DNA of 64,000 nt from Candidatus Micrarchaeia archaeon (GTDB taxonomy: Archaea > Micrarchaeota > Micrarchaeia > Norongarragalinales > Norongarragalinaceae), in the NCBI GenBank assembly GCA_041648335.1, contig JBAZPG010000004.1:13793-77792 (forward strand). The letters run 5' to 3'. The translations under genes were made by a program, and so were the position numbers. Below are positions 820 to 46,755 of the stretch, piece by piece. Every line of letters begins with the position of its first letter. Within the stretch, counting starts at the first letter, position 1. The notes under the pieces are model-generated. The model was not told where the DNA came from. It searched no databases and was given only the letters and a program-made list of their open reading frames with translations.

Positions 820-2547
820 TTAACGAACTTTTTGTTTTTCGTATAATGCGAGCGCTTCCTCTTCGGTCGTTGCCTCGGCTGGGGTCTTGTCGTAACGCAC
901 GCGCACCAGTCGCGGGAAACGCAACGCAAGCCCGCGTCCCGCGCTCTTGGCTGCGGTGTGCACCTCGCTCTGGCTCAATTCATCGGCTTTAACTTCCACC
1001 ACGATTTCGGGTTTCACCCAGGCGTGCGGCTCGATTAGCGAGTCAACTTCGTCCGGCTTCTTGGGCAGTTTGATTTTCTCGAGGCGTTCACTCAACTCTG
1101 CCAGCTGGGCTTCGCTGAAACCAGTTCCTATTTTCGCAATCGTGCGGTAGCCGCGTCCCGCGCGCACTGCGGTGAGCAATCCGCCGAGCCCGAATTCGGT
1201 GCGCTTGCCTTTCCCGTAATAATAACCGACAACGACCACGTCAAGGGTGTCAGCCAATCCCTCGGAATACGATTTCTTGAGTTTTATCCAGGCGAACTTG
1301 CGCGCCCCCGCGGCGTACGGTGCAGCGAAGTCCTTCACCATCACTCCCTCGAGCCCGGCGTCCACGCATTCCCCGAAGAATTCCTCGAGTGCCGCCGCGT
1401 CCTTTACGAGCTTGCCTTGCGACAGGCGGATCATCCCGTCCCCGCGCACCAAACCCGCGAGCGCGTTGCGCCGCTCCTTGAACGCCACGGGGGTGTAGTC
1501 GCGCCCGTCAGCGTAAAGCAAGTCGAACGCGAACACTTTGAGGGGGATTTCCTCGGATTTCGCCTTGATTCCGTGCTTGCGTTTGCGTTTCGCGGTCTCC
1601 TGGAACGCCTTGAAAGTGCCCGTGGCCTCGTCGAAGCTGATCGCCTCGCCCTCGAATATCGCCTCTTGCGCGCGCACTTGTTCGCGCACTGCCTTCACCA
1701 CGTCCGGGAACATGGCGGTGGTTTTCTCCTGGCGCCGCGAGTAAATCTCCACGCGCGAGCCGGACTTGTGTATCTGGAGGCGCAAGCCGTCGTATTTTCC
1801 CTCGGCGAAGCACTCGCCCATCTTTTTGATTATCCCCGCGGCATCAGGCAACCGTTCGGCGAGGGCTGGGCGGATGGGGTGGAACGGCTCGGCTTTGACG
1901 GCGCGTACCGCCTCCATTCCCTTCGAGTAAAGCGTCTCAGCCACGAGGCCCAAGTCCGAGGAAAGGTTGAACGCGCGTTCGAGCTCGCCGCGCAAACTCT
2001 TGTTCCCGGCTTTCGCGAACGAGAGCGCGTCGATTATCGTTGCCTCGCCCACGCCAAGGCGCAGCCGTCCGGTTACGAAGCGCGTCACCATCTTCGCCTC
2101 TTCGGGCGAGCCGTTCGAGAACAGTTCCCCGAGGAGCCGCGTCTTGGTGGTCTGGCTGCCCGTGCCCGACGCCGTGGCGATGTGCAACAGGTTGTCATGC
2201 ACTTTTGCCACCGTGAGGTTCGACGAAGCGAGCGAGTGCTGTTCGCGCTTCGCGAGCAACGCCTCGGCAGTTGCACCCAAGTCCCCGGTCTTGCGGTAGG
2301 ACGCCTTCACTTTTTTCTGGGATTGCCCGGAAACCGTTGCCAACGCGTTCACGCACAACGCCTCAGCCAAACCCAGCTCGACATCCTCGAACGCGGGCTT
2401 CACTATCCCCTGTAAAAGGTAAACTATGGCGCGCACCTCGCCGCGGGGCGCCTCCTCGAACAGCGCGCCCAAGTCGCGCGAAATGTCCAAGCGCGAGGAC
2501 TGCCCCTCGAGCTTCGAGAAAACTTCGGCAACGCGCGCGAACTCCAT
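820..2547 (-). CDS. lig: ATP-dependent DNA ligase
   Basis: 575 aa with motif I KYDGLRLQIHK (KxDGxR), an OB-fold region and an archaeal-type N-terminal DNA-binding domain. Its start abuts the stop of the upstream gene at 2548. Confidence 0.95.
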   Translation of the reverse strand: MEFARVAEVFSKLEGQSSRLDISRDLGALFEEAPRGEVRAIVYLLQGIVKPAFEDVELGLAEALCVNALATVSGQSQKKVKASYRKTGDLGATAEALLAKREQHSLASSNLTVAKVHDNLLHIATASGTGSQTTKTRLLGELFSNGSPEEAKMVTRFVTGRLRLGVGEATIIDALSFAKAGNKSLRGELERAFNLSSDLGLVAETLYSKGMEAVRAVKAEPFHPIRPALAERLPDAAGIIKKMGECFAEGKYDGLRLQIHKSGSRVEIYSRRQEKTTAMFPDVVKAVREQVRAQEAIFEGEAISFDEATGTFKAFQETAKRKRKHGIKAKSEEIPLKVFAFDLLYADGRDYTPVAFKERRNALAGLVRGDGMIRLSQGKLVKDAAALEEFFGECVDAGLEGVMVKDFAAPYAAGARKFAWIKLKKSYSEGLADTLDVVVVGYYYGKGKRTEFGLGGLLTAVRAGRGYRTIAKIGTGFSEAQLAELSERLEKIKLPKKPDEVDSLIEPHAWVKPEIVVEVKADELSQSEVHTAAKSAGRGLALRFPRLVRVRYDKTPAEATTEEEALALYEKQKVR

Positions 2548-5500
2548 TCAAGGCACCCAGCCGCTGATTATTCCAGTCAACTCGCTTTGCGCGTAAGTCG
2601 ACGGGTCGCCCTGCGCCGCGTCGAAAACGCCGCTTGCGCCCGCACCCGCATTCGCGTTCACCAAACCGAACGCCTCCCACGGCGCGGCATTCGCGAAAAC
2701 ATCCTGTAACGCCGGCGGCACGGGCGCGCACGACGCACTCAAACCGAAACGCACAACCGTGTAAAGCCGGTTATTGAAAACAAATTCTTCCACGCCCCCT
2801 GCCTTTGCCTCGCAAATTGCAACGCAGTTCCCGGAGGGAAGCGGCGAACAAACGAAATTCGCGGTCTTGGGTTCGGGCACGAGCGCGGGCAAGCTCACGA
2901 GCATTCCACTCAATTCGGCGCACGGTGCCACCGCAAGCGAGCACGCCGCCCGGCTGCCCGTGACATCCGAGTAAAAGCTGGGCACCACCACGCTTTGCGT
3001 TTCTTGTGCCTGCGCGAGCGAAGCAAGCGTCGCCTCTTCAGTTACCCGCACCCCGTCGTCCTCGCCGTGCGCGAAACCGCACAAGCGCGTTCCGCCAGCA
3101 GTCATAATCGAAGCGGAGTAATCCCACGTTGAACCGTCCGCACTCGCTGCCTTCAACTCCACTACTGCGGGTCCGCCACACGCTTCAACCGTAAACCCTT
3201 CTTCTTCCAACGCAGTCAAGCCGCCCTCGGCGAGCTGGGCAATGCCTACGAACTCGAATTCACCAAAGCCAAGCGCCCCCGCCGGCGCCCCTGCGCCCCG
3301 TTTGAACGCGCCGGCGTTCGCCGTGCGCAACGCCTCAGCCTTGAACGCCGCCATCATTTCCTTGGCAGCCGAAGCGTCGCACCAACCGCGGCTGCAGCAC
3401 AGCCAGTCCCCGCACGATTCAACGCGGGAACCCAAATCCGTTTTTCCCGGGAACAACGAAACCTGTTGCGGGTAGTCCACGCTTGCCGAAAAACTTCCGC
3501 TCTCGAACGCGGTTGACTCAGTCAGCTCGAACGCCCTGACTGCCGGCGAATCGAACTCAACGCCGTTCACGATGCGCGAGCCGAACTGTTTCTCGTCCAA
3601 AACAAACGCGAGCTTCGCCGCGCCGTCGCCTGGCGTCAACCCGCGCGGCTCAACGAGCAACGCTTCTTCTTCAACCGCAGTCACGCTTATCGGTATTTCA
3701 AGGCGCGCGTCTTTGAGGCAGGACGCGCTCACCACCAGGCGCGCGCCCGCGTCTTCGGGCGCCGCGTTGCCGTCAACCGCAAGCGGGCACGAGGGGTTGC
3801 CTGCGTCCGCGGCTTTGAACCACACCGCCCCGTTTGCATAACCGTAACACGATTCCGTGCCCGCGCTGCTCTCGAAGCGGTAGGCAAGCCCGCACTCTTC
3901 AGCCGTCAAGTCCAACGCAACCGCGTCCGCCGGATAAATCGAGTTGACTTCCAATTCGATTTCCAAGACGCGCGACTTGAGCGCGCCCGATTCGAGCCAG
4001 AAGTCCTCGTGCGCGCCAGTAGAATTCCACGCCGTACCGTTGCCTCCGGTTGCCTCTTCCGGCTTGCTCACCTGAACCGTGAAATCCTCGGTCGCGGCAT
4101 AGCATCCTGCCTTTTCAGGCGCGCGCTCCGCGTTGCCGAGTGCTTCGTCAAGCGGGTCACGCGTCCATTCGCTTCCCTTGATTGAATAGCCGCGGTAACC
4201 GAACGACACGGTTCCCGCGCCGCCGGCGCGCACCTTGAACACGCGTTCGCCCGCGTGCGCCCGCGAACGCGAATCCACCCACTTGTAGCCCCCGTTCAAC
4301 GCCGCAACCGAATCCTGCAAGAGTGCCGCGCAATATTCCCCCGCGTCGTCCAATTCAGCCGAGCTGCGTTCCACCCAGTCGCCTTTCGGGTAGTTGGTAA
4401 TCCAGGCGTCCCCGTGCACGCTCAACGCAACGCCCGCCTCGTCCGCGCCTTCCGCGGGCACGAGGTTGAACACGAGTTCGTATTCGCGTCCTTCCTCGAA
4501 CGCGTCCACGAAACCCGAGGCGTCCCGCGCGCCCACGAACTCCACGCGTGCCGTGCCGTCCGCGCGCTCGAGCTCCACCGAACGCGCGGCGCGTTCGCCC
4601 GGTTCCAAGCCGTCCACGGAAAATTCAGTCGCGGCGTAGCCGTCCGCGTCCGCGCGCACTATTGTTTCTTCAAAAGCGTCCAACTCGAAGCCATCAGCAT
4701 CCACTGAAACCTTTTCGTTGTTTTGCGTGACCTCGAACAAGGCGCGGTCAATCGAATTATTCGCGGAGTCAACCGCGTCCAGAACAAGGAACGCCTTGCC
4801 CCACGCGAGCTTCAGGCTAATGTTCTTGTCCTCGTCGAGCGTTACGCTCGCGGACGCCCGCTTCCCGTTCGCGTAAGCGGATACTGAGTATTCGCCCGCG
4901 TCGAGGCGGAACTCCGCCCGGCCGTCAAGGGCAAAAGCGTCCGCCTTCGCCTTGCCGTCCGCCGAGCGCACCGAGAGGCTCGCATTGCCCGCGTCCACCG
5001 TGACCAACAGTTTCTTGGATGATGCAGTCGAGCGCGCCACGACTTCCACGGTGCCGCCCGGTTGGAATTCGCGGCTGGTTACGGGCGCGAAGCCCGTGCC
5101 GGTTGCAACAAAGTAAAGCGATTCGTTCGAGTACGACGAGTACACTGCCTCGCCGTTCGTTTCCGTTGATGCCAGCGGGTTCGCGGGCAGCGAGTAAACC
5201 GAAATCAAGCAGGGCACGGGCGCGCCTCGCGCGTCCACTGCGCGCAGCGTGGTGTTCACCGGCTCGGCGGACAAGGAGATTTCAAGGAAGTTCGCGCCTT
5301 CGGAGAGCACGCGCGGCTCAGCGGAGCCGTCGAGCACGCCGTCGCCGACGAATACCGCGTACGCCTCGGTGCCCGCGGGCAAACCCCGAATGATTGCGCT
5401 TCCCGCTTCCACGCGCGCGGAACCCAGGAACACGCCCGCGTTGAAGTCGCGCACGAACACTTCACCGTCAACAGGCGCGCCGCTTGCGCCGGTCACGGTG

Positions 5501-25426: not shown

Positions 25427-25511
25427 TGCCGGGGGCGGGATTCGAACCCGCGATTGACCTTAGCCAAACCGCTCGACAGGCAGTCCCCTTAACCTGCTCG
25501 GGCACCCCGGC
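25427..25511 (-). tRNA. tRNA, 85 nt, with a 16-nt extra arm but a GUC-containing anticodon loop; identity unresolved (possibly Asp-like with a non-canonical insertion)
   Basis: Minus-strand sense GCCGGGG-UG-..-ACUGC-CUGUCGA-GCGGU-UUGGCUAAGGUCAAUC-GCGGG-UUCGAAU-CCCGC-CCCCGGC-A. It has a perfect 7-bp acceptor and T arm. The only pairable anticodon stem gives loop CUGUCGA, and no CCA is encoded. Confidence 0.55.
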
Positions 25512-36867: not shown

Positions 36868-37278
36868 TCACTTCCAACCGCGGTTGGCTACGAGGCGCTC
36901 CTTGAGGCGGCTGCGCGCGTAGAAAGCCACGACGAGCACCGCGAACCCAGCCGCGATTATCGCGGCGTTCTCGGCGAGCATGAACTGGCAGGCGCACAGC
37001 GAGTAAACCAGGTATTCGACGAACGCGCCGAGGACAACGAGCCACAACAGGCGGAGCTCGATTAGGTATTCCGCGAACAAGCCCTGCTTCTTAATCGCAG
37101 CCACGGGGTAGAAGTACATGAAGCTCGCGGCAGCCAACAGGAGCACGCCGGGGAAGAACGTCTTCGTGGACGCGGGGTAGAACAACTCCGCAGCCAGCGC
37201 CACGAGGAACACGCCCGCCAAGTGCAGGGCAAGGTAAGTGTTCTCTTTTTCCGATAGCCAGTCAATCAAACCGCGCAT
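36868..37278 (-). CDS. small membrane protein, hypothetical
   Basis: 136 aa, 4 TM. Confidence 0.35.
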   Translation of the reverse strand: MRGLIDWLSEKENTYLALHLAGVFLVALAAELFYPASTKTFFPGVLLLAAASFMYFYPVAAIKKQGLFAEYLIELRLLWLVVLGAFVEYLVYSLCACQFMLAENAAIIAAGFAVLVVAFYARSRLKERLVANRGWK

Positions 37279-37434
37279 AAAAACACCCCGTAAAAACTAT
37301 TGTAAAAATAACCCGCAGCGGGCTTAAAAGCGTTGCCCGACGCCCCGCCAAGCAACGCCTTTTTTTACTCCGCCGCCAACAAGGGAATCGGATGATGACC
37401 AAGAACTAACAAACTCTGACTTCGTGATGAGTGA

Positions 37435-37448
37435 CGGACGGTCTGACA
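37435..37448. repeat. left copy of a perfect 14-bp direct repeat (CGGACGGTCTGACA) flanking a low-GC cassette
   Basis: The identical 14-mer recurs at 38634..38647, and the intervening ~1.2 kb is markedly AT-richer than the flanks. Confidence 0.55.
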
Positions 37449-37481
37449 ACGATTCATTAGCTTGATCAACAGTGAGGAAAA

Positions 37482-37844
37482 ATGGAAAAAACAGAATTTG
37501 AGGAATGGTTTAAACAATTGGGAAATGCGTGGTGCGCTAGAGACCCCGAAAAAGCCGCAAGCCTCTTCTCCAAGAATGTAGAATATTATGAATCGGTTTT
37601 TGAACCCCCGTGCAACTGGGACAAAGTCCTTGAACTGTGGCTTGCCGTGCCAAAAAACCAGAAGGATATTACTTACGATTTTGAAATAATATCTACTGCG
37701 GGTAATCTTGCTGTTTGTAACTGGAAAGTGTCGAGAACGATGCTTCCGGATAATAAACTACAGAGAATAAACGGAATTTTTATAATTCGGCTAAATCAAG
37801 CCGGTCTTTGCGATTACTTTAAGCAATGGCGCTCGGTGCACTAA
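37482..37844 (+). CDS. NTF2-like / SnoaL-like small protein, hypothetical
   Basis: 120 aa, low-GC codon usage, alpha+beta cone-like pattern. Confidence 0.35.
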   Translation: MEKTEFEEWFKQLGNAWCARDPEKAASLFSKNVEYYESVFEPPCNWDKVLELWLAVPKNQKDITYDFEIISTAGNLAVCNWKVSRTMLPDNKLQRINGIFIIRLNQAGLCDYFKQWRSVH

Positions 37845-38095
37845 CTTATTGAACCGAACGCAGTTTCGCGGCAAAAACCTATTTCCGCGAAAACGAGCTG
37901 GCTCTGAATGTGCGAGCGCTCAGGCAATCCCCCAAGCGTGCCTCTGACTTGCGGTTATCTTACGTTTGCCGCCGCGATTGTAAGATAATTGGTTTTCCGT
38001 TTTTCCACTGCTTAGGCGCACATCTTGCTTGCCTAGACTAAATGCAGCAGCGCTAATTCACTTTTTATACTTTTAAAAAGAATCAACGATTACTG

Positions 38096-38599
38096 ATGTA
38101 CATGAAAAAAGCGATTCTGCTGTTCGGTCCGTCCGGGGTTGGAAAAAGTACGGTGGCAGCCATGATTTGCAAAAACCATGGTTTCAAGCACTGCGACGCG
38201 GACGAATTCAAATGGCGTTATTCTCACAAGAGGTCAAAGAAACGAACCGAAATAGGCGAAGCCGAAGCATTCGCGTACGCCAAACAACTTATTCACGCAA
38301 AAGAAAATCTGGTCGTCGAAGCACTGCCCGATAAATATCTTAAAAAACTGGCGGGGCTTTTGAAGCGCGGCGGATACAAAGTGCTCGAAATCTCGCTTTG
38401 CGCATCCGTGAAGCAATGCGTGAGAAATAACGCTTCGAGAAAAAGAAAAAATTACGATGCGAAGGTAATCCGCGCAGTTTACCGAGACCTCTCTAGAAAC
38501 AGAGGCCTAGTCGTCAATACCGAGGGCTTGTCCGCTTGGCAGACGTATAACTTGATAAAAAAGGCGCTCGATAAGCGCCCGTCATTTCCGCAGAAATGA
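38096..38599 (+). CDS. P-loop NTPase / small-molecule kinase-like protein (AAA_33 / zeta-toxin-like fold)
   Basis: Walker A GPSGVGKST near the N-terminus; 167 aa; low GC. Confidence 0.55.
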   Translation: MYMKKAILLFGPSGVGKSTVAAMICKNHGFKHCDADEFKWRYSHKRSKKRTEIGEAEAFAYAKQLIHAKENLVVEALPDKYLKKLAGLLKRGGYKVLEISLCASVKQCVRNNASRKRKNYDAKVIRAVYRDLSRNRGLVVNTEGLSAWQTYNLIKKALDKRPSFPQK

Positions 38600-38633
38600 A
38601 CCGCCCTCCGTCGGTCAAGTGTTGTTCCCCTAG

Positions 38634-38647
38634 CGGACGGTCTGACA
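38634..38647. repeat. right copy of the 14-bp direct repeat (CGGACGGTCTGACA), followed by a low-complexity GAAA/CTTT inverted-repeat tract
   Basis: See the left copy; downstream GAAACTTTCTTTTCTTTCCGAAGAAAAGAAACTTTC carries dyad symmetry. Confidence 0.55.
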
Positions 38648-38757
38648 GAAACTTTCTTTTCTTTCCGAAGAAAAGAAACTTTCATGAAAGAAAAGAAGGG
38701 TTTGACTTTTCATGAAAAGAAAAAACAGCGATTCTTTCGTGAAATAAAAGAAGGGGT

Positions 38758-39729
38758 CTACCGTATCTCGCCCACGAGCTCTTCGAGTATGTCCTCGAGG
38801 GTTACCACGCCCGCGAACTCGCCTTTCTCGTCCACCACGACCGCGATGTTCCTGCCGAGCGACTGGAGGGTGGCGAACGCGTTGTGGAGTTTGTCGGTCG
38901 TATGCAACAGCACGGGTTTCGTGCACACCTTGTCCACCGTCCAGTCGGGGTGCTCGTAGAACGCCCGGACGAGCGCCTTGAACGAAATCGTGCCCACTAT
39001 CTTCTTCTGGGGGGTGAGCACCGGGAAGCGCGAGTAAACGCTCCACACCGCCTTCTTGTGCGCCTCGGCAACGGACTGTTCGGAAGACAGCATCACCGCG
39101 CTTGACTTCGGTGTCATCGCCCTTGAAACCGGGCGGTCGTTGAATTCGAGCACGTTCTCGATGAGTTCGCGCTCCTTCTCGGATATCCCCTTGTGTTTGG
39201 CGCCGAGCTTGACTGCCGAACGGACTTCGGCTTCGGTGAACTGCTCTATACCCGTAGCCGTCGAGTAAACGCCGGGGATGAGGCGGTTGATGGACTCGAA
39301 GAGCACCACCAACGGGAAGGAAAGCCAGTAGAACGCCTCGATTGCCTTAGCCGAGGACAACGCGATTTTTTCCCCGTACGTGGTGGCCGCGCTTTTCGGC
39401 GCGATGTCCCCGAAAGTCAACAACAGGAAACTCATAAGCCCGATTGCGATACCCACCCCTGCCTCCCCGAACAAGCCCGTGGATATGCTCGTCGCGAGTG
39501 CGGAGGCGGCCACGTTCGCGATGTTGCCTCCGATTAAGAGCGAAATTACCACTCGGCGGCGTTTGGAACGCAACCGCGCCAGGCTCTCCGCCCCGGGCGC
39601 CGCTTCCTCCACCAGGGAATGCAGCCGGACGGACGAGAGCGAGAGGAACGCCACTTCGGTTGCGGCGAAGAACGCGGACGCGGCAACCAACGCGGCAAGC
39701 AGCGCGGCCTGCGCATAAAAATCAAGCAT
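38758..39729 (-). CDS. CNNM/CorB-family membrane protein (DUF21 transmembrane domain plus a CBS pair)
   Basis: N-terminal DUF21 multi-TM region and C-terminal tandem CBS domains (..VVDEKGEFAGVVTLEDILEELVGEI). Confidence 0.85.
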   Translation of the reverse strand: MLDFYAQAALLAALVAASAFFAATEVAFLSLSSVRLHSLVEEAAPGAESLARLRSKRRRVVISLLIGGNIANVAASALATSISTGLFGEAGVGIAIGLMSFLLLTFGDIAPKSAATTYGEKIALSSAKAIEAFYWLSFPLVVLFESINRLIPGVYSTATGIEQFTEAEVRSAVKLGAKHKGISEKERELIENVLEFNDRPVSRAMTPKSSAVMLSSEQSVAEAHKKAVWSVYSRFPVLTPQKKIVGTISFKALVRAFYEHPDWTVDKVCTKPVLLHTTDKLHNAFATLQSLGRNIAVVVDEKGEFAGVVTLEDILEELVGEIR

Positions 39730-39794: not shown

Positions 39795-40499
39795 TTAGAG
39801 GCGCGCCGCGCCTAACGCGCACAACGCTGCAACGAGCAGGGGCTGGTGCGCCAGGTAAATCGCGAGCGAGTGCCTGCCCGCCAGGCACAACGCCCCCGCG
39901 TAAAAAGGCTTCTCGAATAACGCGAAAGCGCGCCTGCCGCCCCGATAGAATATTTTTCCGGCGGCAACGCCGAACAGGAATACGCCGAACCACGGGAACA
40001 ACGGTTCGTAGTCAACCGAGGAAAAGCCCGCGGGCGCAACGCCCAGCCACAAGAACAGTTGGGTTTCGGGTTGGATTGTTGCCAAGGGAACGGCGAGCGC
40101 GATAATCACGCAACCCAAAACAACCAAGGCAACGGGAGGCAGGCGCAAGGCGAACGCGCCCGCGAGTATTATCGACGCGCCTATCAAGTGTAAAACCCCG
40201 AAGACAACGAACGCTTCGGGAATGAAGTAAAACGTTGTTGCGGTGACGAGCAAGCCGCACGCGAATATTTTCGCGCCGCGCGCCGCCAGGCGTTTGCCTT
40301 GCGTGGACGCGAGGTGCGTGCTCAAGCCGGCGAGGAAAACGAATGCGGCAACCGTGGCGAACGCCCACAACTGGTTCGCAGGCAACGCGGGGTCAAAGCT
40401 CGCGATGCCGAAATAAGCGAGGGCGTAGAGCCAGTTGAATGCGAGCATGGACGCCACCGCGGCGCCGCGCGCGAAGTCCACCTCCCAGAATCGGGGCAT
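39795..40499 (-). CDS. DUF1624-like acyltransferase-family membrane protein
   Basis: 234 aa, multi-TM, with an N-terminal RFWEVDFARG motif. Confidence 0.45.
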   Translation of the reverse strand: MPRFWEVDFARGAAVASMLAFNWLYALAYFGIASFDPALPANQLWAFATVAAFVFLAGLSTHLASTQGKRLAARGAKIFACGLLVTATTFYFIPEAFVVFGVLHLIGASIILAGAFALRLPPVALVVLGCVIIALAVPLATIQPETQLFLWLGVAPAGFSSVDYEPLFPWFGVFLFGVAAGKIFYRGGRRAFALFEKPFYAGALCLAGRHSLAIYLAHQPLLVAALCALGAARL

Positions 40500-40552: not shown

Positions 40553-40712
40553 ACAAAATCACATCATCCTCCCGAGGTAGGGTGTGGTATATTTCAATAG
40601 GTTAGTTGTGGACTATTATTGAACGACGTTGCATAATTTTAATATTTACCTACGAATCTATTTGACCGAAAAACATATATTACTCTTTTATCATTAATAT
40701 TGATAGATTTGT

Positions 40713-41030
40713 ATGGTTATGGCTAAAGAAGATCCGAACGAAATACTTCAGGCTCTGCTGAGGATAGAGCATCGCCTCGAGGACATGGGGGCATTACTGC
40801 GCCTGGGTCAGCGCGGACAAATCGAGCAAATCAAACAAGAATTCTTGAGTAGTGGTGTACGTAAATCAGTTTATGAGTTATGCAACGGGAACTGCTCCGT
40901 CAACGAGATGGCTGCCAAGTTGCACAAAAAGGGACCCAACATAAGCCGGGCCCTTGGAGAGCTTGAGGCTGCTGGATTGATACGGCAAATTAGGGCTGGC
41001 AGGCACGTTAGCTACGAGCGCCTGATTTGA
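40713..41030 (+). CDS. winged-HTH (ArsR/MarR-like) DNA-binding protein
   Basis: SVNEMAAKLHKKGPNISRALGELEAAGLIRQIRAGRHVSY is a recognition helix plus wing; 105 aa, low GC. Confidence 0.55.
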   Translation: MVMAKEDPNEILQALLRIEHRLEDMGALLRLGQRGQIEQIKQEFLSSGVRKSVYELCNGNCSVNEMAAKLHKKGPNISRALGELEAAGLIRQIRAGRHVSYERLI

Positions 41031-41031
41031 G

Positions 41032-41259
41032 GTGGGGAATATGAGTGAAGAAATATTAGCCCGCATAGACCGGCGTTTAGAACAACTGGTTAAGATATCT
41101 GCGTTGAATGTCGGCAAGGATTCAACTTTGACTGATAGGATAGTATTGCTCTACAAGATTGATTTCGGACCGAAAGAAATTGCAGAAATTCTTGGAACAA
41201 ATCCTAACGTGGTTAATGTTCGATTATCCGAAGCGCGAAAACGAGGCGAGATAAAATGA
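41032..41259 (+). CDS. small HTH protein, sigma-70 region-4-like (paralog 1 of 3)
   Basis: 75 aa ending PKEIAEILGTNPNVVNVRLSEARKRG; overlaps the next gene by ATGA. Confidence 0.5.
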   Translation: MGNMSEEILARIDRRLEQLVKISALNVGKDSTLTDRIVLLYKIDFGPKEIAEILGTNPNVVNVRLSEARKRGEIK

Positions 41260-41474
41260 AAATCAAATCCGAATTGGATGTATTAAACGAGATTTCAAGG
41301 AAACTAGATGTCCTAATAATCACGCTAACTTGTCAAGGCAAGTCCGAAGACGAAGTAACTCAGATATTCATGAGATCTGGGCTCAGCTGTCCTGAACTTT
41401 CTACGATAACTGGTATAAGTGTTGCTGCAATCCAAAAACGTATTGAACGCGCACGAAAACGGGTGAAAAAATGA
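41256..41474 (+). CDS. small HTH protein, sigma-70 region-4-like (paralog 2 of 3)
   Basis: 72 aa ending PELSTITGISVAAIQKRIERARKRV; overlaps the next ATG by ATGA. Confidence 0.5.
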   Translation: MKIKSELDVLNEISRKLDVLIITLTCQGKSEDEVTQIFMRSGLSCPELSTITGISVAAIQKRIERARKRVKK

Positions 41475-41638
41475 GTGACGAAGATATTGCCAAGGAGCTA
41501 GCAGACATAAAGAAATTGTTTATACTCAACTTAATGTCCGCGGGCGTAAATTCAACAGATATCGCTAAGACCCTCGGAGTAACAAAGGGGCGATTAAGTC
41601 AAATAGTAAAGCGGCCATCCAAGAAATCAACGGATTGA
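41471..41638 (+). CDS. small HTH protein, sigma-70 region-4-like (paralog 3 of 3; 55 aa, below the ORF-track length cutoff)
   Basis: Hand-translated: MSDEDIAKELADIKKLFILNLMSAGVNSTDIAKTLGVTKGRLSQIVKRPSKKSTD. It has the same HTH pattern and is translationally coupled. Confidence 0.4.
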   Translation: MSDEDIAKELADIKKLFILNLMSAGVNSTDIAKTLGVTKGRLSQIVKRPSKKSTD

Positions 41639-41680
41639 TCCTAAAAATAATGGTACAACCATAAACTCGATACAACTGGT

Positions 41681-42472
41681 TTGATAAATATGAATTCTAG
41701 CGCTCCTTTGGATGCAGATACGCTAAAGAAAAACTGCGCACATTATGCTGGTCTTCATTCCAAAGCAATCGACGTTTTGAGAAAAGCCAACGGAAAAATC
41801 GATTATAAAAAAATTGCCGAAATTCTGAGTCTTTCTAAAACTAGAGTTAGTAGCCTATTGAAGTCAGCCGAGCGATTTGGGCTCGCAAGAAAAGAGGAAA
41901 AATTATACAAAAAGTTGCCAGGTATTCTTCAGCATATGCCTAAGCGGACCACTAAAAAAACGAGTTTCAGATCCGTATCGGAGGTTATGGTTGGGGCAAC
42001 TAAAAAAGCAAGCTCATTTAAGCGTAAACCGTACATCGGTTTTAGAACCAAAACGCAAGATGAGGGCAGGATGGCTAACGCATATATTTGGGTGTATATA
42101 ACAGAAAATCTCCTGCGAGACCTCATACGGAATGTATTTTCATCAGAAAAAGACTGGTGGAACAAGCAGGTTAATGGCGCAATTAAAAAAGAAGTACGTG
42201 ACGCTATAGCCAAATACCCTTATGACGGAGCTAAAAGAAAAGATGAACTGGAATATACTCACTTGGGGCAGCTTAAAGAGATAATAACCTCAAAAATGAA
42301 TTGGAATCTATTTTTATCTCATCTCAATGAAACTGATAAAAATAGTTTTAATGCTACGGTGGAAAAAGCTATCCCCTATAGAAATTCAATTGCTCATTGC
42401 ACTCGCCTGACCTCAGAGGATTTTAAATTTGTTGAACTGAGATTCAAGGACATTTTGAAAATGATAAAATAG
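41681..42472 (+). CDS. HTH-HEPN fusion protein (N-terminal wHTH; C-terminal HEPN-like domain with an R-x4-H motif)
   Basis: N-terminal ..KKIAEILSLSKTRVSSLLKSAERFGLARK; C-terminal ..KAIPYRNSIAHCTRLTSEDF containing RNSIAH (Rx4H), reminiscent of Abi_2/Swt1-type HEPN. Confidence 0.5.
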   Translation: MINMNSSAPLDADTLKKNCAHYAGLHSKAIDVLRKANGKIDYKKIAEILSLSKTRVSSLLKSAERFGLARKEEKLYKKLPGILQHMPKRTTKKTSFRSVSEVMVGATKKASSFKRKPYIGFRTKTQDEGRMANAYIWVYITENLLRDLIRNVFSSEKDWWNKQVNGAIKKEVRDAIAKYPYDGAKRKDELEYTHLGQLKEIITSKMNWNLFLSHLNETDKNSFNATVEKAIPYRNSIAHCTRLTSEDFKFVELRFKDILKMIK

Positions 42473-42670
42473 GCAAAGATATTCTTTCTTCGGAAACAAC
42501 AAATCTTTTTTGGTATCCGACAAACCTGCGCACCTCAAGCAGCTAACCTGATCGCTCAAAAGAGTGGCTACACCCTATCTTTCCCGCTTATTTCCGCACT
42601 GAAGCGTTTTGCTCCGATTTTCAGTGGCAACGACCCCTAAGCACCTTTTTAATGCGTCTTCGGGTTTACT

Positions 42671-43552
42671 ATGCGGGGGACTGGCGTGCTAAAGGAAGCT
42701 AAACCGTTTGTTAAATGGGCTGGAGGCAAGCGCCAGCTTTTGGACGAACTCACCCGGGGCCTTCCGTCCTTTGAAAATTATCACGAACCGTTTTTGGGTG
42801 GTGCCGCGTTCTTTTTCAGGTTGGAGGCAGAAGACAGGATAAACACGGCTTTCTTGAGCGACTCCAACGAGGAACTAATCAACGCTTACTCGATAATCAA
42901 AAGTGACGTTTTCGGGTTGATGGCGGAACTATCTTCCCCGATTTACGCGAACAATGAAGCCGCTTACTACAAAATGCGGGCCTCCAAGCCTTCTTCAAAG
43001 GTAGCGCGCGCGGCGCGTTTCATTTACCTGAACAAGACCGCGTTCAACGGGTTGTACCGCGTTAATTCGAAGGGCGGTTTCAACGTTCCCTTCGGGCGTT
43101 ACGATAACCCGAAGATACTCGACAGCGAAAATCTGTTGCTGGTTCACCGCGCCTTGCAAAAAGACGAGCTTTACTGCGGCGACTTCGCGGTTGTGTTGAA
43201 GAATGCGAAACGCGGTGATTTGGTTTACTTTGACCCGCCCTATCATCCAATATCCAAGACCGCGCACTTCACGAGCTACACTAAGGACAAGTTCTCTGAG
43301 GTGGATCAAACGAAGCTCATGAAAACCGTCAAGGCGCTCGATTCGCGTGGCTGTTTCGTGTTATTGAGCAACTCGTACTCCGACTTTACCGCCGAACTTT
43401 ACGCGGAGTTCGAGCCGGAAGTGATTTTTGCAAGCAGGATGATAAACTGCAAGGGAGACCGTCGAGGCAAAGTGCAGGAGTTACTTGTCCGGAATTGGGA
43501 GCCCAAGGTAGCCCAGAGGAAGCTCGTTGAAGAAATAGTCGCAATCAACTGA
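42671..43552 (+). CDS. DNA adenine methyltransferase, Dam/D12 class (N6-adenine MTase)
   Basis: N-terminal KPFVKWAGGKRQLL (AdoMet-binding motif I region), catalytic DPPY, and FNGLYRVN. Confidence 0.9.
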   Translation: MRGTGVLKEAKPFVKWAGGKRQLLDELTRGLPSFENYHEPFLGGAAFFFRLEAEDRINTAFLSDSNEELINAYSIIKSDVFGLMAELSSPIYANNEAAYYKMRASKPSSKVARAARFIYLNKTAFNGLYRVNSKGGFNVPFGRYDNPKILDSENLLLVHRALQKDELYCGDFAVVLKNAKRGDLVYFDPPYHPISKTAHFTSYTKDKFSEVDQTKLMKTVKALDSRGCFVLLSNSYSDFTAELYAEFEPEVIFASRMINCKGDRRGKVQELLVRNWEPKVAQRKLVEEIVAIN

Positions 43553-44008
43553 TTTGATGTACGCTAAAACATCCGCGTATTCCTTCTTTTTGAACCAGTC
43601 GTTTAAGACGTAAACATACTTGACTTTCAATTTCGGTTCGACGAGCTTCTTGTACTGCTTTAACTTGAAGTCGCAGGTCTGGAGCTTCTCGTCCACCGAA
43701 CCCGCGACCGTCTGGAACTTGGTTTCAACTATGAAAAGCGTCTCGTTCACCAGAACGAGCACGGCGTCGTCCGGCAGGAGCTTCTTGGAAATCAGTTTTC
43801 CAACATTTACGCCCATCGGCGCCAACAAGCCCGAATAAAGCCTGTTTTTCTTGTAAAGGCGCGCCACATCCTTGCCCTTGAAGGTTACGGTGTCGTCGCT
43901 GACCGCGTAACCCTTGATTTTCGAGATGACCGTAGCAAAGTCGGTTCTCTTCTCGAAGTGGAGCCCGTGAAGCGTAGTTTTGCTACCGCCCTTTCCTCCG
44001 CGAATCAT
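43481..44008 (-). CDS. putative PD-(D/E)xK nuclease; candidate restriction endonuclease partnered with the Dam-like MTase
   Basis: A PDD..(x18)..IVETK arrangement is compatible with a PD-(D/E)xK core. It lies convergent to the MTase and overlaps its 3' end by ~70 nt. The start is set at the internal Met (MIRGGKGG) because the upstream part of the ORF looks non-coding. Confidence 0.3.
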   Translation of the reverse strand: MIRGGKGGSKTTLHGLHFEKRTDFATVISKIKGYAVSDDTVTFKGKDVARLYKKNRLYSGLLAPMGVNVGKLISKKLLPDDAVLVLVNETLFIVETKFQTVAGSVDEKLQTCDFKLKQYKKLVEPKLKVKYVYVLNDWFKKKEYADVLAYIKSVDCDYFFNELPLGYLGLPIPDK

Positions 44009-44146
44009 AATACTAACAATATTGCCGGGTATTTTAGGTTTTAGCGGCTTCAGGTTTTGCTCTTTAAACCCCGTTTTGGGCGAGTTAAAGGAGAATAGCG
44101 CCGGATTTAGGAGTAGTTTTAAATCCGTCTTGGTTTTAGTTGTTTT

Positions 44147-44704
44147 ATGCCCGCGCCAAATAAGAAGTACGACTACTGCGATCCCATCCAGTTGAATTTG
44201 AAGAACAAAACGCGAGAAGAATTTAGACGGAGTATAGTAACCTGCTTTCTTTTGGAAAACAAGGGGTATTGGGACGATGAAGTCCAGCATGTTATGCATT
44301 ACACTTATTTTGTAGAAACAATAGCCGATGGTTCAAGAATTTACTTAAAGCGTCCCGCGCGTTTAAACAAGGGAATGGATTTTCAAGTAAATGCAGAAAA
44401 TTTTCTTAAATATGAAAACGGTAATAACAAACCACCCAGCCACAAGGACATAATAAAGGACCTAAAAAATAAAAAAAAAGAAGCTCCTAAAAAATTTGCG
44501 CAATTGATGAAGTTAATTGCGCGGGTCTATAATTGCGAAGAGCCAGATGAAGTTCTGTCCGGCAGTAATCTAAAATTTAATTCGGGTGCAACCATAGAAT
44601 TGTTGTTGAAATTATTGAAATGGTTGTTTATCGAACAGGATATGACTTACTGGAGTTATGATGGCCGCGAAATGCTTAAACGAGGAATAGACGAACTGGC
44701 GTGA
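44147..44704 (+). CDS. hypothetical basic protein (185 aa), low GC
   Basis: Coding-like Lys/Glu/Asn-rich composition in the AT-rich island; no motif. Confidence 0.35.
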   Translation: MPAPNKKYDYCDPIQLNLKNKTREEFRRSIVTCFLLENKGYWDDEVQHVMHYTYFVETIADGSRIYLKRPARLNKGMDFQVNAENFLKYENGNNKPPSHKDIIKDLKNKKKEAPKKFAQLMKLIARVYNCEEPDEVLSGSNLKFNSGATIELLLKLLKWLFIEQDMTYWSYDGREMLKRGIDELA

Positions 44705-45003: not shown

Positions 45004-46170
45004 TTAAAACGGGATGTCGTCTTCGCTAGGTTTTCCTTTATTTTTCCTTGCAACCAATTGCCTGAAAATCCGCGAGGCGGCGCCTTGTTTGTATTTTTCG
45101 CGTTTTTCTTTCGCTTTTTTTCGCGCGTCCTCCAGCGTCGGTTTCTCGAGCGGAACTACAGAAGCATGTAAATTTTCGTAGTCTTTCAACTGTCCGTCAT
45201 AGTCTTTCAACAAATGGCGTTCGTAAGCTTCTTCGATTCTTTTGATTGTTTCTTTGGGCAGTTGCTGGAAGTGCGGGGTTATCTCGTGCGCGTCATCGAA
45301 TATTACCTGGCGCAATTCTGCGGCCAAGTGGTTTTCTTCGGTTGAACCGCCGGTCGAGTAATCCCAGCCAATTTCGCCCGGACGCCGGTTAGGTGCATTT
45401 CCCTTCTTGCCTTCTTCCTTCAAGTATGTGCCCGCAAGTGCTTTGGTTACGCGCGCGGTTCTCTCGCTTGGTTCCATTTTTTTCAACCAACCGGAAAGTA
45501 CGCAAACGCCGTTCTGCCGAGCGATGCGCGAGCGTTTGTCATTCAACAAGTTCAAGGCGTATTCCACGCCTTCGGGCGCACCCAAACGTACTAATGTCCT
45601 GACGGCATCGCTGCGGGTATTTTTGTTAGGGTCTTCGAGAAAGGGCAGCAGATGGCGTACGAGGTGCGGGTCACCCGAGAAGGCAATGGATTGGATTAAC
45701 TTGCTTCTCACGAAACTGCTTTTTTGGTCCGGCGCATGTAATGCTTGACAGGCGCCGAACGCGATTTCCGGGTAGTGCATAAATGCAGCTAATTTTTCGG
45801 CGGCGATGGCGCGCACCCAGTGGCTTCGGTCCCCGGTTGCTACCTTCAAGAGTTCTTCGCCCGCCGTCTGGCTCTTACGTCCACTCAATTTTTCCAGGTT
45901 GGCCAGCGCGCGCACTGCGGTTCCGCGGACTTCAAAGCGAGGGTCCCCGCGGATTAATTGGATTAACTTTCCATGGGCTTCCGGGGCGTCGATTGAGCCG
46001 AGAGCTGCCGCGAGTTTTACCCGTTTTTCCACGCCCGCGTTTTCAAACGAGGAGACGAGTTTAGCAAGGATTCCCGCTGGAATTTCATTCGAGATTATTC
46101 TTTGGCGGGGGTATTCAAATCGCGAACTAACATTATCCACCTTACTCCTTTGTTGCATCCATTTCGGCAT
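45004..46170 (-). CDS. HEAT-repeat (PBS-lyase-type) protein
   Basis: Multiple DPxxxVRxxAxxALxxxG repeats (DPRFEVRGTAVRALANL, DRSHWVRAIAAEKLA, DPNKNTRSDAVRTLVRLG). Confidence 0.7.
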   Translation of the reverse strand: MPKWMQQRSKVDNVSSRFEYPRQRIISNEIPAGILAKLVSSFENAGVEKRVKLAAALGSIDAPEAHGKLIQLIRGDPRFEVRGTAVRALANLEKLSGRKSQTAGEELLKVATGDRSHWVRAIAAEKLAAFMHYPEIAFGACQALHAPDQKSSFVRSKLIQSIAFSGDPHLVRHLLPFLEDPNKNTRSDAVRTLVRLGAPEGVEYALNLLNDKRSRIARQNGVCVLSGWLKKMEPSERTARVTKALAGTYLKEEGKKGNAPNRRPGEIGWDYSTGGSTEENHLAAELRQVIFDDAHEITPHFQQLPKETIKRIEEAYERHLLKDYDGQLKDYENLHASVVPLEKPTLEDARKKAKEKREKYKQGAASRIFRQLVARKNKGKPSEDDIPF

Positions 46171-46224: not shown

Positions 46225-46755
46225 TCACCGGCTGAGCGCCCACCAGAGCATGACGAGCATGGCGAATTTGGCTGCGAAAACCGCGAGCCAGAGGCGCGCG
46301 ATCTTGATGTCCGTCATTTCGAGGAAGGCGAGGGCGATTTCGTCCGGGAAAGGCATCGCGAACACGAACAAGCCCGCCGCCGGGAGCACGAGCTTGAACT
46401 TGCGGCACTGCCAGCGGATTCGGTAGACTAGCTTGCGTGCGTTCGCTTCGAGCGTGTCCCGCATCGCCGAGAACAGGAACGCGTCAACCGTGGCTGCGGT
46501 GGCGGCTGCCACGGCGGCGACCACGAGTGCGTTCTCGGCGCGCATCAACTCGAATACCACCACCATTGCGAACGGGGTGGTCGAGCCGAACGTGTAAAAA
46601 GCGCCGGCGAGGCACGCGCCCAGCAAGCCCAGCGTCAGCAGGTAGCCGGAGACGATGCGGTCGAACCCGAGGAGGACGAGGGCGGCGCTTGCAACCACGA
46701 AGCCGGTCGCGACGAGGAACCGCTTGTCGAAGGATAAGTGTTTTGCGAATAACAT
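46225..46755 (-). CDS. integral membrane protein, hypothetical
   Basis: 176 aa, 4-5 TM. Confidence 0.4.
   Translation of the reverse strand: MLFAKHLSFDKRFLVATGFVVASAALVLLGFDRIVSGYLLTLGLLGACLAGAFYTFGSTTPFAMVVVFELMRAENALVVAAVAAATAATVDAFLFSAMRDTLEANARKLVYRIRWQCRKFKLVLPAAGLFVFAMPFPDEIALAFLEMTDIKIARLWLAVFAAKFAMLVMLWWALSR

Follow-up and report, generated by a model that had tools for sequence, protein, structure and literature searches.

A conserved operon of small HTH genes and a HEPN gene

We analysed a stretch of 64,000 nucleotides (positions 13,793 to 77,792 of contig JBAZPG010000004.1, assembly GCA_041648335.1; hereafter the window) that comes from a metagenome-assembled genome (MAG) of Candidatus Micrarchaeia, belonging to the DPANN archaea. 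At positions 40713-42472 the window carries a module of five genes: a leader encoding a winged helix-turn-helix (wHTH) protein, three genes for very small helix-turn-helix (HTH) proteins, here called mini1 to mini3, and a gene for a fusion of a wHTH with a HEPN domain. From sequence comparison and structure prediction we propose, with a probability of about 0.5, that this module is a self-contained, horizontally mobile conflict operon, similar to abortive infection (Abi) or toxin-antitoxin (TA) systems, of DPANN archaea and of bacteria of the candidate phyla radiation (CPR). Several features considered together point to an Abi- or TA-like module: the antitoxin-like order and coupling of the genes, a HEPN domain that looks active, the DNA-binding domain of the effector itself, an N-terminal helix present throughout the small proteins, the portability of the module between archaea and bacteria and the conflict systems found in its neighbourhood.

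The five co-directional and closely packed open reading frames (ORFs), which a previous sequence-only reading had described in this region, are borne out by the ORF list and by the sequence. The features of the module are the following (fam numbers are subfamilies of the HTH array, see below):

40667..40682, + strand: putative archaeal promoter read from the sequence, with a BRE-like CGAAAAA (40667-40673) followed by a TATA-like CATATATTA (40674-40682)
40689..40705, no strand: imperfect palindrome TATCATTAATATTGATA, candidate operator downstream of the TATA-like element and ahead of the start codon
40713..41030, + strand: leader gene, 105-aa ArsR/MarR-type wHTH with an N-terminal amphipathic helix, array subfamily fam7
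41041..41259, + strand: mini1, 72 aa, subfamily fam0; an alternative GTG at 41032 would give 75 aa
41256..41474, + strand: mini2, 72 aa, subfamily fam4; ATGA overlap with mini1
41471..41638, + strand: mini3, 55 aa, subfamily fam3; ATGA overlap with mini2, HEPN-proximal member of the array
41690..42472, + strand: effector gene, 260-aa wHTH-HEPN fusion; an alternative TTG at 41681 would give 263 aa
41714..41935, + strand: ArsR-like wHTH domain at the N-terminus of the effector (260-aa form, residues 9-82)
42056..42460, + strand: C-terminal HEPN domain of the effector, Swt1/Abi2 clade, residues 123-257
42504..42511, + strand: T-run TCTTTTTT, plausible transcription stop, 32 nt past the HEPN stop codon

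The ORFs of 75 and 263 aa that were first reported for mini1 and for the effector do exist, but their starts are more likely to give proteins of 72 and 260 aa. For mini1 the ATG at 41041 is more likely than the GTG at 41032, because it is preceded by a GGTGGGG Shine-Dalgarno-like motif and because NCBI also annotates 72 aa. For the effector the ATG at 41690 (MNSSAPLD...) is more likely than the TTG at 41681, because it fits the N-termini of the homologs; the NCBI start lies later and gives 254 aa. The leader and mini1 are separated by 1-10 nt, and mini3 and the HEPN gene by 42-51 nt. The NCBI locus tags of mini1 (WC607_02230) and of the HEPN gene (WC607_02240) fit one gene between the two, therefore either mini2 or mini3 appears to be absent from the public annotation.

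The putative promoter precedes the leader ATG by about 31-39 nt, and its role is predicted from its sequence. Archaeal repressors usually bind between the TATA element and the start codon, which is where the imperfect palindrome lies; it is nevertheless a weak operator candidate, since no operator motif is common to the loci considered below. A longer inverted repeat (40651-40661 / 40703-40713) is also present upstream of the leader. At the other end of the module the T-run at 42504..42511 could plausibly act as the transcription stop that ends the operon, and oligo-T termination is established in archaea.

The effector has a HEPN domain with invariant R and H

The sequence-only reading had attributed to the C-terminal part of the effector a HEPN-like domain with the Rx4H signature, and this attribution is supported by Pfam, by conservation and by structure prediction. 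The AlphaFold2 model of the effector, obtained with an alignment of 74 sequences, has a mean pLDDT of 89.5; in it a basic disordered linker joins the wHTH (residues 9-82) to an all-alpha domain (123-257) with the helical-bundle fold of HEPN proteins. The R and H of the RNSIxH motif (Rx4H) are invariant in alignments of 25 and 74 homologs, and so is the E-N-x2-R motif of the first HEPN helix. In the window protein, which also has E-N-x2-R, the motif reads AIPYRNSIAHCTRL, with R encoded at 42380-42382 and H at 42395-42397 (R231/H236). According to alignments and model, then, the C-terminal domain is a HEPN fold with a conserved Rx4H.

In Pfam the window protein matches HEPN_Swt1 (PF18731) with 27.7 bits (gathering cut-off 27.5), and the same family is matched with 56.3 bits by a distant relative (locus L060); no match to Abi_2 (PF07751) was present among the Pfam hits of the effector at E<=1. 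In PADLOC, residues 126-261 match PDC-M34B (E = 7.9e-19), so that the effector is not wholly absent from databases. We found 83 HEPN homologs, nearly all of them full-length and of about 260 aa, which are functionally unannotated, being labelled as hypothetical proteins or as MarR/Lrp-family regulators.

An array of HTH genes is the conserved partner of the HEPN gene

To evaluate the linkage between the HEPN gene and the small HTH genes, we collected 59 loci that encode relatives, 14 of them in GTDB species genomes and the other 45 in metagenomes, and based the count on the 33 for which the upstream sequence extends over at least 1.5 kb. In 30 of these 33 loci, two to six contiguous and co-directional small HTH genes (ORFs of 55-105 aa), all from one HTH family set, lie directly 5' of the HEPN gene. 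Two of the three exceptions (L028 and L032) also possess the array, which is split from the wHTH-HEPN gene by an ORF of 172 aa, and the third (L059) is a HEPN fragment. Even HEPN relatives at 30-36% identity (L060, L061) retain the arrangement. The linkage of the mini-HTH genes with HEPN, proposed from a single locus, is thus found across the family, and by this comparison the HTH array is a conserved partner of the HEPN gene.

The genes are also tightly coupled: among 146 junctions there are 62 start/stop overlaps of 4 or 1 nt, 41 gaps of at most 15 nt and 7 larger gaps. The module therefore has the upstream coupled small DNA-binding gene that is typical of type II TA systems, but with three to seven genes (two to six HTH genes and HEPN) it does not have a two- or three-gene TA architecture. 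No recurrent extra component was found 3' of the HEPN gene, where only small clusters of at most three loci were present. The genes that follow the module in the window (a methyltransferase, a PD-(D/E)XK candidate, a 185-aa ORF and a HEAT-repeat gene, described below) had no match beside the homologs; they were consequently rejected as parts of the module, and the conserved unit here corresponds to exactly five genes.

Nature of the small HTH proteins

The mini-ORFs are real genes as judged from selection, since pN<pS (nonsynonymous below synonymous differences) in 128 of 128 ortholog pairs; for pairs with unsaturated dS the median omega is about 0.17. A different explanation is that they are spurious ORFs, the region ahead of the HEPN gene being an AT-rich leader that might conceal an RNA antitoxin like those of AbiF or ToxIN: their size is tiny (55-72 aa), the NCBI tags fit only one gene between mini1 and HEPN, and the closest solved HEPN structure, AbiF, uses a noncoding RNA (ncRNA), as far as its description goes. 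This explanation is effectively refuted by the selection just described, by confident HTH folds and family profiles, and by the finding of no tandem repeats or Rfam families in the 40.0-46.5 kb region (TRF, Rfam). On the same TRF and Rfam result, an RNA antitoxin as in AbiF or ToxIN was rejected.

Network clustering divided the array members into about 11 subfamilies (fam0-fam10), most pairs of which are aligned by hhalign with a probability above 90% over nearly the full length, confirming that the small HTH genes are paralogous. They had been described as a triplication; however, the best match of 169 out of 170 array members lies in another locus, so that recent tandem duplication was rejected and the array is, from these comparisons, a set of two to six ancient, diverged paralogs. 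Nor is the leader a separate element: the 105-aa protein (Pfam MarR_2 27.9 bits, HTH_5 23.6 bits; NCBIfam ArsR/SmtB 1.8e-9) falls within the array family set as fam7. The wHTH leader family of about 100 aa, fam7 (95%), and fam9 are the closest to the N-terminal domain of the effector (hhalign 93-95%). An N-terminal helix of the type LxxIxxxLxxLxxLL is common to minis and to wHTH array members, and in the AlphaFold2 model of mini1 (pLDDT 87.9) a long amphipathic N-terminal helix is followed by a three-helix HTH. This helix, present in the whole family, seems suited to oligomerisation.

The likeness of the minis to sigma-70 region 4 was supported only in part. A weak similarity to Sigma70_r4_2 exists for mini1 (25.0 bits) and mini2 (24.5 bits), but both are below the cut-off of 25.7, and mini3 has no match to this family, its best Pfam match being a KorA-type HTH (24.3 bits); mini3 also weakly matches phage HTH families. 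Only 16 of 150 array members reach Sigma70_r4_2 at E<1e-3, ParB and DnaA-IV domains score above sigma region 4, and sigma region 2 is absent from the minis, which consist of one helix and the HTH (55-75 aa). "Sigma-r4-like" is therefore a fair nickname, weak and non-specific as a family assignment, for what looks like a generic simple HTH fold. Moreover, to our knowledge archaea have no sigma factors, whereas the mini family works in archaea. The family is narrow as judged by its profile: among 5.8 billion proteins the whole-array profile found only 29, of which two have 93 and 136 aa and all the rest 63-72 aa; the small number that carry a name are from DPANN MAGs. No viral structural match was found for mini1.

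The order of the subfamilies follows a loose, recurrent grammar, with a fam1 or fam7 leader, then fam0, a variable middle and finally fam4, 3, 9, 2 or 0 abutting the HEPN gene. The window array reads 7-0-4-3, and fam4 is the commonest HEPN-adjacent family in archaeal loci. The proximal family co-varies with the HEPN phylogeny (permutation p = 0.0005-0.0015) and the leader family does not, which suggests a stable core of proximal HTH and HEPN with an exchangeable distal part, although the co-variation could also come from simple linkage. Such a pattern recalls a two-gene type II TA system, in which only the HEPN-adjacent HTH would be the antitoxin and the others would be independent transcription factors or orphan antitoxin-like genes. 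In its favour, the proximal member alone co-varies with HEPN while distal and leader members are reshuffled, the array length varies from two to six, and an antitoxin-first order with stop/start overlap is the canonical type II layout (PMC2701414). We regard this explanation as unlikely, since all 30 array loci have at least two HTH genes and never one, the members form one related superfamily with a distinctive N-terminal helix, coupling extends along the whole array together with purifying selection on all members, and the recurrent order of leader and fam0 would not be expected from accidental accretion.

Distribution in two domains and mobility

Named records of the module belong to DPANN archaea (Woese-, Nano- and Pace-archaeota, Diapherotrites) and to CPR bacteria (Saccharibacteria, Tagabacteria); the others are MAGs of an unclassified "bacterium" and a single short contig assigned by binning to Deltaproteobacteria. 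In archaeal loci a BRE/TATA element of the type RAAAGnTTTATATA, comparable to the putative promoter of the window, lies 25-35 nt before the leader start codon, and in CPR and bacterial loci TTGACA-N17-TATAAT is found upstream of the leader. Promoters are thus appropriate to the domain, showing that the two-domain distribution is not a binning artefact. Strict promoter patterns classified 7 loci as archaeal and 6 as bacterial, in agreement with taxonomy wherever both are known, and the nearest neighbour of each HEPN sequence had the same promoter class in 12 of 13 cases (p = 0.004). Some subfamilies are also specific to one class (fam2 bacterial; fam4, 5, 9 and 10 archaeal), and the overall picture fits a few inter-domain transfers followed by diversification.

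We also searched the regions upstream of the arrays for a shared operator, but no k-mer was enriched beyond shuffles, and only promoter elements and locus-specific inverted repeats were present. In three CPR-type loci (L003, L004, L034) an inverted repeat GGATAA...(~40 nt)...TTATCC surrounds the sigma70-like promoter about 110 nt before the leader; this may be an operator or merely reflect shared ancestry.

The GC content of the module ranges from 27 to 41% across loci and is never above that of the flanks. In the window it is 41%, compared with 59% for the rest, and the module is part of a low-GC island (about 40.5-46.2 kb, 45%). By its composition the module is horizontally acquired in this genome. 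The sequence-only reading had considered a bacterial-type HTH unusual in an archaeon, but a sigma-type HTH is unremarkable here, because the module also occurs in CPR and was acquired horizontally.

The low-GC island, the position of Phage_integrase as the top Pfam family among neighbours (4 of 127) and the weak similarity of mini3 to KorA and phage HTHs would also agree with the immunity region of an integrated mobile element, where the HTH proteins act as Cro/CI/KorA-like switches and HEPN as a superinfection-exclusion or addiction gene. This is very unlikely: relatives were found neither in IMG/VR viral contigs, nor in 50,697 INPHARED phage genomes, nor in 72,556 PLSDB plasmids, the island in the window encodes no structural, replication or integrase genes, att repeats are not convincing, and no viral structure was matched by mini1. 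A virus or plasmid origin is hence not supported. A 24-nt imperfect direct repeat (83% identity) at 40335-40358 and 46471-46494, with a spacing of 6136 nt, flanks the island, but both copies are inside unrelated high-GC genes, so that it is unconvincing as att sites and is probably due to chance. Att sites and an integrase were therefore rejected for this island, the boundaries of which are defined by composition only.

Neighbourhood and defence context

We surveyed 127 neighbouring ORFs from 25 loci with Pfam and PADLOC. Recurrent families are integrases (Phage_integrase being the most frequent single Pfam family), C5, N6 and N4 DNA methylases, HsdR, HsdM and HsdS, type IIG enzymes, Fic and HNH. 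In L045 the module has hsdR on one side and, on the other, a Ymh-family HEPN gene, hsdS and hsdM; in L009 hsdM and hsdS flank it, and in L060 AbiEi/AbiEii adjoin it. HEPN genes of the Abi2/Swt1 and Ymh types have been described in a PrrC-like position inside restriction-modification (R-M) operons (PMC3710099), and the position of the module in L045 and L009 corresponds to this embedded position. It was also from embedding in known defence systems that the PDC candidates were nominated (Payne et al., bioRxiv 10.1101/2024.01.29.577857). Judging from these gene contents, the setting of the module is that of conflict systems and defence islands.

The same evidence bears on a non-defence role, in which an HTH cascade would regulate a DNA-tethered HEPN protein acting in the episymbionts as a specific RNA-processing or regulatory RNase, or as an RNA sensor. 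The effector does have a high-confidence DNA-binding wHTH of its own, regulators and processing enzymes are known among HEPN proteins (MtlR, Las1, Swt1; PMC3710099), and a DPANN-conserved MNT-HEPN fusion is found in a housekeeping context (PMC6393860). A role of this kind is quite unlikely, considering the patchy distribution, the AT-rich foreign composition and the varying neighbours, the embedding in R-M operons with integrases, Fic and AbiE nearby, the strict conservation of R and H as in active toxins, and the extra HEPN paralogs (solo Swt1-like, Ymh-like) which often join the locus, as is typical of defence islands.

Within the window, these genes of the island follow the module:

42671..43552, + strand: Dam-like N6-adenine DNA methyltransferase of the D12 class (Pfam MethyltransfD12 1.6e-56; PADLOC MTase_II 1.9e-95)
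43481..44299, - strand: 272-aa ORF, candidate PD-(D/E)XK nuclease (Pfam PDDEXK_11 21.4 bits, below the cut-off; D...ETK motif)
44147-44704: 185-aa ORF without a family match
45004-46170, - strand: 388-aa HEAT-repeat protein

The methyltransferase and the 272-aa ORF are convergent, overlap by about 70 nt and are probably a type II R-M pair, as their sequences suggest. The 272-aa ORF looks non-genic over its N-terminal third, and its true start may lie further downstream. A second low-GC patch (37200-38800, 40-47% GC) contains a gene for a SnoaL-like protein of 120 aa (37482-37844) and one for a P-loop kinase-like protein of 167 aa (38096-38599), with an AAA_33 match and a weak Zeta_toxin match; two high-GC genes (CNNM/CBS, HGSNAT-like) part it from the main island. 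Elsewhere in the window, ARAGORN found a tRNA-Asp (25427-25511) that at 85 nt is over the standard length and may contain an intron; tRNA introns are common in archaea.

Proposed mechanism

In the conflict operon that we propose, a single polycistronic and coupled transcript would encode the leader wHTH, the small HTH paralogs (three here, one to five elsewhere) and the wHTH-HEPN protein. HEPN would be the effector, a metal-independent RNase acting through its invariant R and H. The HTH proteins would be its obligate partners: they would auto-repress the operon at its promoter and, together with the wHTH of the effector, hold the RNase inactive in a nucleoprotein or hetero-oligomeric complex. 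In this complex the HEPN-proximal member would act as core neutraliser, and the distal ones as regulators or sensors that can be exchanged. When the cell is infected or the element is lost, turnover of partners, DNA damage or displacement would upset the complex, and the freed RNase would cut cellular and viral RNA, leading to dormancy or death. RNase activity, toxicity, neutralisation, DNA binding and the trigger are all inferred here from sequence features and gene order. The portability between archaea and bacteria suggests that the mechanism is self-contained and independent of host sigma factors and of the transcription machinery.

Some observations weigh against this proposal. The HTH-HEPN contact and the toxicity of HEPN are both deduced. 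Array members are approximately neutral to basic and resemble ordinary DNA binders, and could therefore be transcription factors only; moreover, classical type II antitoxins are one gene, not two to six, and no operator motif is common to the arrays beyond AT-rich promoter elements. The match of the window protein to PF18731 is marginal (27.7 against 27.5 bits), while its PDC-M34 relative is unvalidated and the A partner of that system is absent. Finally, the adjacency to R-M genes consists of pooled family tallies without a background rate, so that the enrichment is qualitative.

Comparison with known systems

The closest characterised relatives of the effector domain are the Abi2/AbiD/AbiF and Swt1-like HEPN RNases, which have in common with it the Rx4H motif and the R-M operon setting (PMC3710099; PbAbiF, PDB 8vz6). 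AbiF is caged by an ncRNA, at least according to what is described with PDB 8vz6. In contrast, the module has no Abi_2 Pfam match and no tandem-repeat ncRNA antitoxin; its effector has an ArsR-like wHTH as N-terminal domain and two to six small HTH genes upstream, and so far the module has been found only in DPANN and CPR. HTH-HEPN fusions as such are known, both as SIGMA-HTH with a DUF4145 HEPN and as wHTH with a Swt1/Abi2 HEPN in giant R-M proteins (PMC3710099).

With type II TA systems (HigBA, MqsRA; also omega-epsilon-zeta and PaaR2-PaaA2-ParE2) the module has in common small DNA-binding genes that precede a nuclease gene and are translationally coupled to it, as well as a mobile and patchy distribution. 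Three-component TA systems have a regulator apart from the antitoxin. The module, however, comprises three to seven genes with several paralogous HTH partners, its putative toxin itself carries a DNA-binding domain, and this toxin is a HEPN protein, whose characterised TA partner is MNT and not an HTH protein.

PDC-M34 of PADLOC is an unannotated and unvalidated two-gene cassette (FAM_01148>>FAM_01657). The HEPN domain of our effector matches its B component, and embedding in defence systems is found in L045 and L009, but the PDC-M34B model (~190 aa) aligns only to the C-terminal domain of the effector. PDC-M34A had no match in the island proteins of the window, nor was it among the 25 top families listed for 150 array members and for 127 neighbours; membership of the module in PDC-M34 was thus rejected, the A component being absent.

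A tested precedent for the proposed caging comes from type IX retrons, where a wHTH or KH-HTH protein and the multicopy single-stranded DNA (msDNA) cover the active site of HEPN, an occlusion that ends when the scaffold is destroyed by a phage nuclease (bioRxiv 10.64898/2026.07.14.738597, 10.64898/2026.07.14.737667). Both systems combine a HEPN RNase with a separate HTH protein, but the module has several HTH paralogs instead of one and a HEPN protein with its own wHTH. No reverse transcriptase was found among the island proteins and no msr/msd by Rfam. Since reverse transcriptase, ncRNA and tandem repeats are absent, caging, if any, would rely on the HTH proteins, possibly with genomic DNA.

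With PrrC/RloC the module has in common its position between hsdR/hsdM and hsdS in L045 and L009. By analogy, this position suggests a back-up RNase that would be released when restriction is subverted; HEPN genes inside R-M operons have a precedent as a second line of defence (PMC3710099). The module differs from PrrC in having an ArsR-like wHTH as N-terminal domain and no ABC-ATPase; the window copy adjoins a type II-like R-M pair, and most homologs are outside type I operons.

Possible additional effectors behind the arrays

Stand-alone Swt1-like HEPN paralogs of 172 aa are encoded between the array and the wHTH-HEPN gene in three loci (L024 638-1156; L028 5385-5906; L032 5284-5802). They possess ENxYR and RNVVAH motifs (hhalign 98%), and the tandem HEPN pair of these loci could form a heterodimeric RNase. 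L060 has on the minus strand (1528-3343) a second, divergent array (fam7-fam3-fam0-fam5/4) followed by a protein of 287 aa with a wHTH-like N-terminus; its C-terminal domain has no Pfam or PDB sequence match, and the protein may be a different effector on the same cassette. A second array (fam0-fam2) is also present in L001, where it leads into a protein of 234 aa (2024-2728). The latter belongs to a family of 222-241 aa (L045 6765-7430; L008 6777-7487; L017 4320-5045; L001 2024-2728) with an HTH-like N-terminus, the genes of which directly follow either the HEPN gene or a separate mini-array. The proteins of L001, L008 and L017 have IENLI... and ANDxTH motifs, and those of L008 and L017 cluster by BLAST with the L045 protein, which matches Hypoth_Ymh (HEPN); these similarities are a weak indication that the family is HEPN.

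From its position in these loci the array appears to be a cassette serving more than one effector. One can go further and imagine, although we hold this to be doubtful, a portable and combinatorial cage or sensor cassette, in which the paralogs would assemble on DNA via their N-terminal helix into a hetero-oligomeric scaffold and hold wHTH-fused effectors inactive, forming a new immune class of DPANN and CPR symbionts with promoter swap across domains. Its effectors would, equally tentatively, include the Swt1-like HEPN, the 234-241-aa family and the 287-aa protein of L060.

Significance of the module

DPANN and CPR have been reported to be poor in CRISPR-Cas and R-M systems and rich in compact, mostly unvalidated defence candidates (PMC12988326). 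In the literature that we covered, which is not complete, neither a multi-paralog HTH array obligately coupled to HEPN nor the presence of this module in DPANN/CPR was described. The module, as delimited by sequence comparison, is one more candidate HEPN defence or TA system, unusual for its multi-partner architecture and for its clean inter-domain distribution, and it offers a well-delimited and strongly conserved defence candidate for DPANN and CPR. Its domain-appropriate promoters make it a clean natural case of the transfer of a conflict system between domains, and the versions with sigma70 promoters could be studied directly in ordinary bacterial hosts. If the HTH set does neutralise or cage the RNase, a new way of regulating HEPN toxins would be added to AMPylation by MNT, RNA antitoxins and retron msDNA, and the importance of tiny ORFs in these genomes would also be explained.

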